Virus record (IMG/VR): IMGVR_UViG_2872703611_000004
Direction: 5' to 3' (one strand)
Source of the DNA: a virus
Taxonomy: Duplodnaviria > Heunggongvirae > Uroviricota > Caudoviricetes
Length of the DNA stretch: 47,047 nucleotides
The notes under the pieces are model-generated. The model had not been told where the DNA came from. It saw only the letters and a list, made by a program, of their open reading frames with translations, and did not search any database. Shown here in pieces: positions 2,490-8,301 of this stretch (position 1 is the stretch's first letter; each line of letters opens with the position of its first letter). The position numbers were made by a program, and so were the translations under genes.

Positions 2490-2685
2490 TTCTGATCCTC
2501 TTCAAAAGGCTACCTGTTACTGGTCGATTTAAGTCAACCTTTACCGCTGATTCGTGGAACAGATATTCTCTTCCATCCTTAACCGGAGGAGGGAATATCC
2601 TGCATTCGCGCACCCATCGACGAACTGTTTCAAGGCTTCTTGGGCGTCGCTGGCGAGCGTTCCACTCCTGAAGTGTCAAGTACAT
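2467..2685 (-). CDS. xis: Lambda excisionase
   Basis: 72 aa MYLTLQEWNARQRRPRSLETVRRWVRECRIFPPPVKDGREYLFHESAVKV...; overlaps int start by 23 nt as in lambda. Confidence 0.95.
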   Translation of the reverse strand: MYLTLQEWNARQRRPRSLETVRRWVRECRIFPPPVKDGREYLFHESAVKVDLNRPVTGSLLKRIRNGKKAKS

Positions 2686-2724
2686 CGCAAAGTCTCCGCA
2701 ATTACACGCAAGAAAAAACCGCCA

Positions 2725-2892
2725 TCAGGCGGCTTGGTGTTCTTTCAGTTCTTCAATTCGAATATTGGTTACGTCTGCATGTGCTATCTGCGCCCACAGC
2801 ATCCAGTGGTCATAGCAGTCGCTGATGTTCTCGGCTTCGATAACTCTGTTGAATGGTTCTCCATTCCATTCACCTGTGACTCGGAAGTGCAT
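2725..2892 (-). CDS. Hypothetical 55-aa protein in the slot lambda uses for ea8.5 (not ea8.5 by sequence)
   Basis: ATG preceded by GGAG with 7-nt spacer (tatGGAGatgataaATG); translation MHFRVTGEWNGEPFNRVIEAENISDCYDHWMLWAQIAHADVTNIRIEELKEHQAA; below the 60-aa cutoff of the ORF track; a hairpin plus U-run follows immediately. Confidence 0.35.
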   Translation of the reverse strand: MHFRVTGEWNGEPFNRVIEAENISDCYDHWMLWAQIAHADVTNIRIEELKEHQAA

Positions 2893-2928
2893 TTATCATC
2901 TCCATAAAACAAAACCCGCCGTAGCGAG

Positions 2929-2962
2929 TTCAGATAAAAGAAATCCTCGTCAGTGCGAGGAT
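2929..2962 (-). terminator. Candidate rho-independent terminator on the leftward strand, upstream of the small ORF and xis
   Basis: 7-bp stem ATCCTCG / CGAGGAT with 6-nt loop; on the minus strand it is followed by UUUUCUUUUAUCUG. Confidence 0.3.
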
Positions 2963-3134
2963 GCTGTTCATTGCTGCTATACACTTTTTTGCTCTCAACG
3001 TAAGCGGTAGCCCATTCTGTTGGGTTGGTGCAGTTGCTTTTAGGAAATGCTATTTACCCCTTAAATGTCGGCTGAAAGAGCTAAAATCCATGCAAAAAAT
3101 TTACGCAATTTTGTGTATTATTGTGCAGTAAGTA

Positions 3135-3737
3135 ATGAGCTATTTTCTGCGCAAAAAATGGATGGTAAATTTGTCCGGGTCAGGAAAAATTTTATGGGCG
3201 CTAAACATGAAAAAAGATTCGTATCCTTATTTGATTTGCATGACAGTTTCAGGGCTGATCTTTATTTTCCTTTTCTTCTGGTGGCGGGCAGATATCTACA
3301 GGGTCACGTTTCTTAATCAGAGTATATCCCACTATTACATTCTGTTTAGCATGGGAATAGCTTTTCTGTTATCTCTGTTTTGGGTTAAGAAGGGGATAGT
3401 AAAACAAAGCGGCTGGAAGAGTCTGTCAGCATACCTTAAGGTTTATGCAGGGATGTGCATATTTGCTGGATTTTTTCTGATTATACCCCTTACGACACTA
3501 ACTTATTTTTTGCCTGGAGAGACATCGTCTTATGTTGCACCGTATCGGTATACTTCCGGTAGTTCAAAAAGTTGTTCTGGAGCTGAGGTGGATGACCCCG
3601 ATCTACATGAGAATATTCGCATTTGCTATCCGTATGGCAATTATGAGTACGATAATATTATCTATGTTGAAAAGAAAATTAATATATTAGGTGCGGTAGT
3701 GACATATGCACAGACCGCGCGTGATGATACTGAATGA
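3135..3737 (+). CDS. AT-rich hypothetical integral membrane protein (three or more predicted TM helices plus a ~70-aa C-terminal soluble tail); moron of unknown function; start may be internal (3162 or 3207)
   Basis: 200-aa ORF in markedly AT-rich DNA, opposite in orientation to flanking early genes; hydrophobic segments LICMTVSGLIFIFLFFWW, ILFSMGIAFLLSLFWV, VYAGMCIFAGFFLIIPLTTLTYF; no strong SD at any candidate start. Confidence 0.5.
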   Translation: MSYFLRKKWMVNLSGSGKILWALNMKKDSYPYLICMTVSGLIFIFLFFWWRADIYRVTFLNQSISHYYILFSMGIAFLLSLFWVKKGIVKQSGWKSLSAYLKVYAGMCIFAGFFLIIPLTTLTYFLPGETSSYVAPYRYTSGSSKSCSGAEVDDPDLHENIRICYPYGNYEYDNIIYVEKKINILGAVVTYAQTARDDTE

Positions 3738-3771
3738 TATAGTATATAGCGGGCAAGTTTTAGTTAATTTA

Positions 3772-3806
3772 TCGAGGTAATATAATTTACCTCGACTCGT
3801 TTGTTC
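3772..3806. terminator. Candidate bidirectional terminator after the membrane-protein gene
   Basis: Perfect 9-bp inverted repeat TCGAGGTAA / TTACCTCGA with loop TATAAT, flanked by A/T-rich sequence on both sides. Confidence 0.3.
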
Positions 3807-3947
3807 TGGTATTAATATTTCGCTTTACGACCGATTTTTATCTGATGATATCATGCGGTTTTCATATACTGACTTACTGTCTTTTCTCCGTTAGCGATTT
3901 TCTCCTGCTCAGCGATGATTTTATCTTTGGCTTCTAGTTAATTTCGC

Positions 3948-4169
3948 TCACTTCGAACCTCTCTGTTTACTGATAAGCTCCAGATCTTGCTGGCAACTGG
4001 CACAAGTCCGACAACCCTGAACGGCCAGTCGTCTTCGTTCATCTATCGGATCGCCACACTCACAACAATGAGTGGCAGATATAGCCTGGTGGTTCAGGCG
4101 GCGCATTTTTATTGCTGTGTTGCGCTGTAATTCTTCAATTTCTGATGCTGAATCAATTATGTCTGCCAT
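3948..4169 (-). CDS. TraR/DksA-family C4 zinc-finger protein (RNA polymerase secondary-channel binder type)
   Basis: 73 aa with CxxC...17...CxxC (CCECGDPIDERRRLAVQGCRTCASC), the size and motif of phage TraR-like proteins. Confidence 0.7.
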   Translation of the reverse strand: MADIIDSASEIEELQRNTAIKMRRLNHQAISATHCCECGDPIDERRRLAVQGCRTCASCQQDLELISKQRGSK

Positions 4170-4267
4170 CTTTCATTAATCCCTGAATTGTTGGTTAATA
4201 CGCTTGAGGGTGAATGCGAATAATAAAAAAGGAGCCTGTAGCTCCCTGATGATTTTGCTTTTCATGT

Positions 4268-4549
4268 TCACCGTTCCTTAAAGACGCCGTTCAACATGCC
4301 GATCGCCAGGCTTAAATGAGTCGGTGTGAATCCCATCAGCGTTACCGTTTCGCGGTGCTTCTTTAGTACGCTACGGCAAATGTCATCGACGTTTTTATCC
4401 GGAAACTGCTGTCTGGCTTTTTTGATTTCAGAATTAGCCTGACGGGCAATGCTGCGAAGGGCGTTTTCTTGCTGAGGTGTCATTGAACAAGCCCCATGTC
4501 GGCAAGCATAAGCACACAGAATATGAAGCCCGCTGCCAGAAAAATGCAT
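4268..4549 (-). CDS. Hypothetical early-left-operon protein in the lambda orf61 position; different length and overlap pattern from lambda orf61; internal start at 4483 possible
   Basis: 93-aa ORF in the leftward operon, 10 nt downstream of the orf63 stop. Confidence 0.55.
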   Translation of the reverse strand: MHFSGSGLHILCAYACRHGACSMTPQQENALRSIARQANSEIKKARQQFPDKNVDDICRSVLKKHRETVTLMGFTPTHLSLAIGMLNGVFKER

Positions 4550-7719: not shown

Positions 7720-8301
7720 ATGAACAACTCATGGTGGCAGGAACTAATGCATTTTTTCCTGCAAGGAATGACACTTAAACAGTTGATTCATATGCTAATC
7801 ATCCTGATCATATTGATTATTGTTATGCCTGTAAGCGTAAAAGAATGGATAAACCTGCATAATCCAGAAATCCTTCCTCATTACTGGATGTATTACATCC
7901 TGTTGTTTTGCGTTAGCTATGTGCTTAACGGCGTTGTTAATTCCGCTTATCACGCTGTGACTGAAAGAATTGAGATATTCGCTGCTCAGAAGCGCAAATC
8001 TAAAGAAGAGAAATACGTGCAAGATTTGTTTGATTCGTTAACTCTTGGAGAAAGAGCGTATTTGGCATTCGCTGTAGCCGCTAATAACCAGCTAAAGACA
8101 GAAAAGGGAAGCCCTGAAGCAATCTCATTGCTCGAAAAAGGGCTTCTTATTCGGGTACCTTCTGCTACTGGATATCCTGAAATCGACCGTTTTGTTATCC
8201 CGGAACGCTATAGAAATGAGTGCTACATTAGGTTTGCTGGGAAGAAAGACAGTCTTATGGATGAACTTATCGCTCAGGATAAGCATGGCAAAAACAAGTA
8301 A
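7720..8301 (+). CDS. sieB: Superinfection exclusion protein SieB (membrane, abortive-infection type)
   Basis: 193 aa MNNSWWQELMHFFLQGMTLKQLIHMLIILIILIIVMPVSVKEWINLHNPEILPHYWMYYILLFCVSYVL...; hydrophobic N-terminal half; rightward gene between the early operon and N as in lambda/P22. Confidence 0.85.
   Translation: MNNSWWQELMHFFLQGMTLKQLIHMLIILIILIIVMPVSVKEWINLHNPEILPHYWMYYILLFCVSYVLNGVVNSAYHAVTERIEIFAAQKRKSKEEKYVQDLFDSLTLGERAYLAFAVAANNQLKTEKGSPEAISLLEKGLLIRVPSATGYPEIDRFVIPERYRNECYIRFAGKKDSLMDELIAQDKHGKNK

Follow-up and report, generated by a model that had tools for sequence, protein, structure and literature searches.

Introduction

Some small phage proteins that lie in the inner membrane or face the periplasm prevent the entry of a phage genome. 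HK97 gp15, T4 Imm and T4 Sp are examples, and HK97 gp15 is the textbook 'moron' exclusion gene. SieB, by comparison, acts by abortive infection from the cytoplasmic side. The SieA protein of phage P22 is a prophage-expressed inner-membrane protein of 162-164 amino acids with three predicted transmembrane segments; it blocks DNA delivery on its own, and predictions place its conserved motif, FxRYPxEAxxFNK, in the cytoplasm (Leavitt et al. 2024, PMC10883804). Here, we analyse an open reading frame (ORF) at positions 3135-3737, plus strand, of IMG/VR virus record IMGVR_UViG_2872703611_000004. This stretch of 47,047 nucleotides (nt), which we call the window, is a lambdoid prophage integrated beside ybhC.

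A sequence-only reading had described the ORF as a membrane-protein moron, that is, an accessory gene expressed in the lysogen. We find that both architecture and comparative genomics support the term. In particular, the gene is a short, strongly conserved coding sequence that travels with its own upstream DNA between two unrelated families of temperate phages. Our favoured reading is that its product mediates anti-phage superinfection exclusion at the level of the cell envelope, to which we assign a probability of roughly 0.4.

A cassette common to lambdoid and P2-like prophages

Most of the homologues examined belong to P2-like prophages, where they are flanked by gpQ (portal) and gpA (replication), with 78% identity in E. 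coli, 71% and 59% in Salmonella and 56% in Klebsiella. This interval, the old/tin locus near cos, is a known hotspot of anti-phage systems, many of which have been validated (Rousset et al. 2022, PMC9122126). When the lambdoid and P2-like versions are aligned, similarity begins about 115 base pairs (bp) before an internal ATG at 3207 and ends about 40 bp past the stop codon. Given these 115 bp of upstream similarity, the 5' region is part of the cassette. Comparison of the window with the E. coli P2-like copy shows 92% identity over positions 3140-3175, as against 78% for the coding region and 61% for its third codon positions. It is thus very likely, judging from these locations and alignments, that we are dealing with a mobile and autonomous single-gene cassette exchanged between the lambdoid xis-exo interval and the P2-like gpQ-gpA interval.

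One homologue is already catalogued. System #4 of Table S5B in the hotspot survey is a 181-amino-acid protein described as '3 TM', with no Pfam match, present in 470 of 18,150 loci (PMC9122126). It is 52% identical to the protein studied here over 168 residues (E=5e-57), and the two share their length, three helices, CSGA and ICYPYG motifs and a single-gene cassette. They differ in location: system #4 occupies the gpQ-gpA interval of P2-like prophages, and our gene the xis-exo interval of a lambdoid prophage.

The moron proposal is strengthened by the recurrence of the gene and its upstream DNA in the hotspot of E. coli, Salmonella and Klebsiella, and by its retention in decayed prophages. For example, the gene is intact in the O157:H7 prophage Sp3/CP-933K (ECs_0804), where int is frameshifted and bet truncated, and in a prophage remnant that has lost int and xis. 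Two features expected of a moron are also seen: the gene is present in some phages and absent from closely related ones at the same position, and its base composition is unlike that of the neighbouring DNA. Among 50,697 records, the only phage isolates that carry it are 434, mEp332 and 2B8; Shiga toxin (Stx) and other lambdoid phages match merely the flanking ORF55 region. The lambdoid version is nevertheless present in 914 of 5426 complete E. coli genomes (17%), O157:H7 included, nearly always on the chromosome and in a single copy (median 1, maximum 2).

At the same position, the DNA of the gene is 98.8-100% identical in phage 434 (CPT_434_36), mEp332 (XSB40999) and O157:H7 Sakai (ECs_0804, prophage Sp3). 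For the copies in phages 434, mEp332 and 2B8, the figure is 99-100%. Over the wider interval 2900-3950, identity is 99.9% to mEp332 and about 99% to phages 2B8 and 434. One match comes from an unexpected source, a 3.5-kb GTDB contig (JARKOR010000073.1, our L027) from a metagenome-assembled genome of 'Candidatus Nanosynbacter' (Saccharibacteria), with 97-99% protein identity across the target gene, TraR and exo. This assignment is almost certainly binning contamination.

Some P2-like copies have neighbours of their own. In four Salmonella loci (L004, L007, L012 and L013; 5100-5890), two co-oriented small ORFs of 81 or 123 amino acids and of 119 amino acids, without a Pfam match, precede the homologue. 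The pair is absent from the E. coli and Klebsiella copies, and could represent partners or independent cargo. In the Klebsiella loci L017-L019 (2281-5623), a 790-residue AAA_16-like protein and a 279-residue protein adjoin the homologue; these look like a separate candidate defence pair.

The reading frame and its start codon

That a long ORF is improbable by chance in such DNA, as the sequence-only reading held, is confirmed by calculation: with 39% GC, chance should produce some 0.15 open frames of 200 codons over both strands of the entire window. Its length of 200 amino acids from the ATG at 3135, on the other hand, does not stand. The conserved start is the ATG at 3207, which yields 176 amino acids and a stop codon (3207-3737, plus strand). 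Divergent relatives (42-78% identity) from E. coli, Salmonella, Enterobacter, Klebsiella and Cedecea are 169-180 amino acids long, and each of them opens with MKK(D/Y)SYPYL, which corresponds to Met25 of the 200-residue ORF.

The remaining 24 codons (3135-3206, plus strand) form an apparent N-terminal extension that shows no protein conservation. Two Salmonella P2-like copies, L004 and L005, have a TAG immediately after the ATG that aligns to 3135, and the E. coli P2-like copy L016 has no ATG at the aligned bases. Natural haplotypes carry 1-nt deletions in the extension at 3153 and 3180, with one variant on at least 45 contigs. The picture is different downstream of 3207. The ratio of non-synonymous to synonymous substitution rates (dN/dS) of the gene is 0.09-0.16 against its closer homologues, which indicates that the 176-residue protein is under strong purifying selection. 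Among 38 natural haplotypes of the lambdoid version, third codon positions hold 15 of the 26 single-nucleotide polymorphism columns in the 531-nt core, and only one haplotype has a disrupting indel within the 176 codons.

Because the homologue starts, the Salmonella TAG, the missing ATG of L016, the deletions in the extension and dN/dS all point the same way, we are highly confident that this is a real gene with its coding sequence at 3207-3737. The region 3135-3206 is most likely non-coding DNA that holds a promoter and leader. Public records use three different starts: TTG at 3171 (434), ATG at 3135 (the Prokaryotic Genome Annotation Pipeline, PGAP) and ATG at 3207 (few records). Of these, 3207 is the one to be preferred.

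The predicted protein

The three hydrophobic helices and hydrophilic tail of roughly 70 residues noted in the sequence-only reading are recovered both by hydropathy and by AlphaFold. Using an alignment of 22 sequences, AlphaFold2 gave a confident model with a predicted local distance difference test (pLDDT) score of 85.7; the C-terminal domain modelled alone reached 90.5. Three transmembrane helices, which coincide with hydropathy peaks, are predicted at residues 5-29, 38-61 and 70-101 (3219-3509, plus strand). Helices 1 and 2 are connected by a short conserved loop, IYRxTFL (loop 1, residues 30-36), with a short strand at 34-36 in the model. The model thus has residues 5-101 as three helices and two short loops, with everything beyond residue 103 in a beta-barrel.

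This C-terminal domain (residues 103-176; 3513-3734, plus strand) is modelled as a five-stranded OB-like beta-barrel with strands at 105-171. It contains two invariant cysteines, Cys123 in the CSGA motif (3573-3575) and Cys140 in ICYPxGxY (3624-3626). The charges are unevenly distributed. Loop 2, between helices 2 and 3, has five lysine/arginine residues and no acidic residue, and the C-terminal domain is net acidic (12 aspartate/glutamate vs 6 lysine/arginine). By the positive-inside rule, these charges would place loop 2 in the cytoplasm and give the protein an N-in/C-out topology, which we regard as likely in the inner membrane. With this topology, loop 1 and the predicted barrel would both be periplasmic, and the cysteines would be suitably placed for a disulfide. 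The barrel would pack against the conserved loop 1 and would probably be stapled by a Cys123-Cys140 disulfide. The predicted cytoplasmic parts amount to about five N-terminal residues and a loop of about 10-20 residues only.

A small and isolated family

A word-indexed search of 5.8 billion proteins retrieved 74 relatives, all from Enterobacteriaceae and annotated only as hypothetical or 'transmembrane protein'. An exhaustive search of 1.84 billion representative proteins with a hidden Markov model (HMM) gave only 61 clusters. Most are about 170 amino acids long or are pieces of this architecture, and none connects the proteins to a larger family; one giant repetitive match (P0124) looked spurious. 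The searches thus describe a small, isolated family restricted to Enterobacteriaceae. Against PDB sequences, a profile search gave nothing below E=0.2, and Foldseek against the viral structures of BFVD nothing below E=0.01.

The C-terminal 88 residues (3471-3737) match PHROG 1416 (90 positions, no functional annotation) with E=7e-51. This PHROG covers only the region past an internal methionine and lacks the membrane half, so it was probably built from truncated gene calls. The curated record of phage 434 labels the ORF 'putative membrane protein', and no record attaches a function to it. No study of the gene came up when the literature was searched for its accessions, locus tags and phage names. 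It is already present in databases (the 434 annotation and the supplementary table of Rousset et al. 2022), yet without a name or a family.

Promoter and upstream repeats

The upstream DNA of the cassette contains what we infer to be a sigma-70 promoter (3143-3171, plus strand). It consists of a -35-like TTTTCT (3143-3148), a 17-nt spacer, TGG (3163-3165) and a -10 element TAAATT (3166-3171), that is, an extended -10-type promoter with a putative transcription start near 3178. The lambdoid copy shares the conserved form TG(G/A)TAA(A/T)TT with the P2-like copies of E. coli and Salmonella; in the Klebsiella copy, a different sequence, TACAAT, takes its place. A consensus promoter scan did not call the element at 3143-3171, whose hexamers match 3/6 and 4/6. 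The putative transcription start near 3178 is a further argument against the start codon at 3135.

A direct-repeat array lies upstream of this promoter (3098-3127, plus strand), with consensus ATTGTGCA and a period of 10-11 bp. The repeats are situated about 45-80 bp upstream of the best-conserved -10 element and putative start. In the phage-borne E. coli and Salmonella homologues examined, they occur in 2-4 copies, the number being variable, and the array is likewise upstream of the gene in copies L005, L109, L112 and L117. They are weak in L012 and L014, and none were found in the Klebsiella copy L017 or in chromosomal copies from Enterobacter and Citrobacter. The array looks like a set of binding sites for a response-regulator-type or CII-type protein.

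The locus in the window and transcription in both directions

The gene occupies the interval between xis and exo and, as the sequence-only reading had it, is an independent accessory gene in opposite orientation to its surroundings. It is the sole long plus-strand ORF among leftward int, xis, ORF55, a TraR-like gene and exo. On the minus strand, ybhC (1-1284) is followed by int (1419-2489), xis (2467-2685) and ORF55 (55 amino acids, 2725-2892) on one side; a TraR/DksA zinc-finger gene (3948-4169) lies on the other, and beyond it come DUF1382 and DUF1317 genes and then exo, bet, gam and kil. The AT-richness claimed for the region is real, though modest: GC content is 0.34-0.42 over 3000-3900, compared with 0.43-0.50 in int/xis and 0.52-0.54 in exo/bet. 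The AT-richest stretch of the first 9 kb of the window (GC 0.34) is the 210-bp convergent spacer between the gene and the TraR-like gene (3738-3947). Further along, the plus strand carries sieB at its canonical early-left position (7720-8301; Pfam SieB, E=1.1e-25). SieB, a known exclusion protein, is also listed as cargo of the gpQ-gpA hotspot (PMC9122126), and is thus a second cargo type common to both phage families.

A 56-residue plus-strand ORF at 2961-3131 is annotated as 'putative membrane protein' in 434 and as hypothetical in mEp332. We rejected it as part of the system and consider that it is probably not a gene. It falls outside the conserved cassette, overlaps the tL4 hairpin described below and has 1-nt deletions at 3014 and 3030 in natural haplotypes. 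An Rfam scan of 2500-4400 found no RNA family.

Hairpin terminators had been proposed to bracket the gene, and this holds in part. The downstream hairpin (3772-3795, plus strand) is oriented to serve the gene: it lies 35 nt past the stop codon and has a 9-bp stem, a loop of 6 and the tail CTCGTTTGTT. The fold of 3738-3812 has an energy of -17.6 kcal/mol (z = -2.4). Its T-tract is weak (CTCGTTTGTT), and the hairpin is only partly common to the E. coli P2-like copy. The upstream pair, in contrast, are minus-strand terminators and not the gene's own. They are two tandem leftward intrinsic terminators (2912-2962, minus strand) with stems at 2962-2943 and 2931-2912 and U-rich tails, located between the gene and ORF55/xis; record M60848 annotates t-L4 at the corresponding position of 434.

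No leftward terminator was detected in the spacer 3738-3947, and pL transcripts therefore probably read through the gene in antisense and end at tL4. Taken together, these elements suggest the following scheme. Rightward transcription of the gene would start at the extended -10 promoter of the cassette, without the need for a phage regulator, and hence should be on in the lysogen. There, pL is repressed, which would leave the gene free for expression. After induction or during lytic growth, antiterminated leftward transcription from pL would oppose the gene, running antisense to it as far as tL4.

Possible functions of the protein

Under the favoured reading, superinfection exclusion, the periplasm-facing domain would act at the envelope to protect the lysogen, most likely by hindering the genome of an infecting phage on its way across the periplasm and inner membrane. 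The sole folded domain is predicted to be periplasmic and is therefore suited to act on something that crosses the envelope. Also in favour of this reading are the repeated placement of the cassette, by selection, in accessory hotspots of two unrelated phage families, one of them rich in anti-phage systems, its survival in dead prophages and its prevalence in E. coli. Extending this reading, we tentatively propose that the protein could be the first known representative of a family of exclusion or defence proteins that are encoded by a single gene and act at the envelope. Such a family would combine three helices with a periplasmic, disulfide-bonded OB-like domain and be encoded in a repeat-bearing promoter cassette common to lambdoid and P2-like hotspots. 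The repeats may tie its expression to a host regulator or to one of the incoming phage.

The main rival, which we judge on the unlikely side, is a role in the host itself. The protein could be a component of the envelope, or an orphan immunity protein against a toxin of the periplasm or inner membrane (e.g. a bacteriocin, or an effector of a type VI secretion system or of contact-dependent inhibition), provided by lysogenic conversion. A number of findings weigh against exclusion, and several of them favour this rival directly. In species of the Enterobacter cloacae complex, an orthologue is found at a non-phage chromosomal locus that is syntenic across at least six Enterobacter species. The copies concerned (L008-L011, L029-L032, L036 and L037) lie beside GGDEF-HAMP and AI-2E transporter genes. 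In genomes with an intact LysR-family gene, the orthologue begins 16 nt past it; some species have a degraded form of the LysR gene. Identity among the orthologues is 63-97%, compared with 79-98% for the adjacent GGDEF gene and 93-99% for the other flanking gene. This pattern indicates that the orthologue is vertically inherited and diverges in step with its neighbours, if somewhat (only moderately) faster. The Enterobacter locus may be the ancestral home of the family or, alternatively, a domestication. Further copies in Citrobacter, Pseudescherichia and other Klebsiella sit in varied contexts, with no P2 or lambdoid marker gene within 6 kb and with flanking ORFs that do not look phage-like. 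The chromosomal copies argue for a cellular envelope role independent of any prophage.

The sequence databases and the hotspot itself add to this side of the balance. The sequence-only reading had not recognised the protein, and neither do the databases: Pfam matches none of the 22 family members, NCBIfam does not match the single protein and PADLOC-DB 2.0 (5027 models) gives 0 families at E<=1. System #4 is absent from Tables S2A and S2B, which list the cloned systems, and is hence catalogued only; moreover, some cargo of the gpQ-gpA hotspot is unrelated to defence, for instance genes for plasmid partition and for cytolethal distending toxin (PMC9122126). The protein is also a single small membrane protein with a predicted periplasmic disulfide-type domain. 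Immunity proteins such as that against colicin M have the same architecture. On the other hand, no toxin gene is consistently adjacent to the family, and there is no Pfam match to any immunity family. In addition, the phage-borne copies examined occupy two positions only, xis-exo and gpQ-gpA, and the latter is dominated by anti-phage cargo.

A second, improbable alternative is that the protein is a membrane effector of abortive infection, inactive in the lysogen. Like RexB or SieB, it would respond to infection by depolarizing or permeabilizing the inner membrane, so that the cell dies before phages are released. In known systems, transmembrane proteins of defence hotspots are usually regarded as suicide effectors (PMC9122126), and the old/tin location fits this idea. 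However, the gene stands alone: none of its neighbours is conserved from one context to the next. A regulated pore would also be expected to have more than three helices. With hardly any predicted cytoplasmic mass, the protein seems ill-suited to detect infection from inside the cell, as a classical abortive-infection sensor would; its conserved soluble domain is instead predicted to be periplasmic. The gene is also stably carried by 17% of E. coli genomes, with a disrupting indel of the coding sequence in 1 of 38 haplotypes.

More doubtful still is a role in the phage's own life cycle, either as a CII-controlled product for the establishment of lysogeny or as a helper of the phage's own injection or lysis. 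The 434 record marks 3111-3124, within the repeat array, as a CII-site consensus (TTGT-N6-TTGT), and the array is kept in most phage-borne copies examined. We counted this consensus across the window and found it at chance frequency (11 found vs 10.4 expected). The repeats are also conserved in P2-like prophages, which are not known to have CII. Moreover, the repeats do not straddle the -35 element, given their distance of about 45-80 bp upstream of the -10. Lambda and most lambdoid phages lack the gene, which is therefore dispensable, and it is kept in defective prophages.

Finally, the possibility that the ORF arose by chance in AT-rich spacer DNA and is no gene can be dismissed for 3207-3737, given a dN/dS of about 0.1, a confident AlphaFold model and homologues of 42-80% identity in five genera with 30 invariant residues, and chance-like behaviour is confined to the first 24 codons.

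Implications

If the protein does block phage entry, it would be a new and very common exclusion determinant in E. coli and Salmonella: roughly one E. coli genome in six carries it, and among the cargoes of the P2 hotspot it ranks fourth in frequency. This would matter for the prediction of phage host range and for phage therapy. Phage 434 would then provide a tractable case of one cassette serving two unrelated temperate phage lineages, and the chromosomal orthologues of Enterobacter could reveal the origin of such genes. If it is not anti-phage, it is still among the most widespread prophage-borne membrane proteins without a known role.

Comparison with known systems

Of the described proteins, SieA of P22 is alike in its size, its inner-membrane location and its three transmembrane segments, here by prediction. 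Homology to SieA (types A-C) was rejected, as hhalign returned a probability of 0.2%, and the SieA motif was not seen on reading the sequence of our protein. SieA also differs in having no beta-barrel domain and in its location, between genes 16 and 9 of P22-like phages.

SieB (PF14163; lambda and P22) resembles the protein in other respects. It is a lysogen-expressed membrane protein encoded on the opposite strand in the early-left region, and is also found in the P2 hotspot. Membership of the SieB family was rejected, since PF14163 matches none of the 22 family members; it does match the ORF at 7720-8301.

HK97 gp15 and T4 Imm/Sp would belong to the same functional class as the one proposed here. 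They are smaller and are not known to have an OB-like periplasmic domain. We regard our protein family as probably unrelated to them; it had no match to a characterised family in Pfam or PHROGs.

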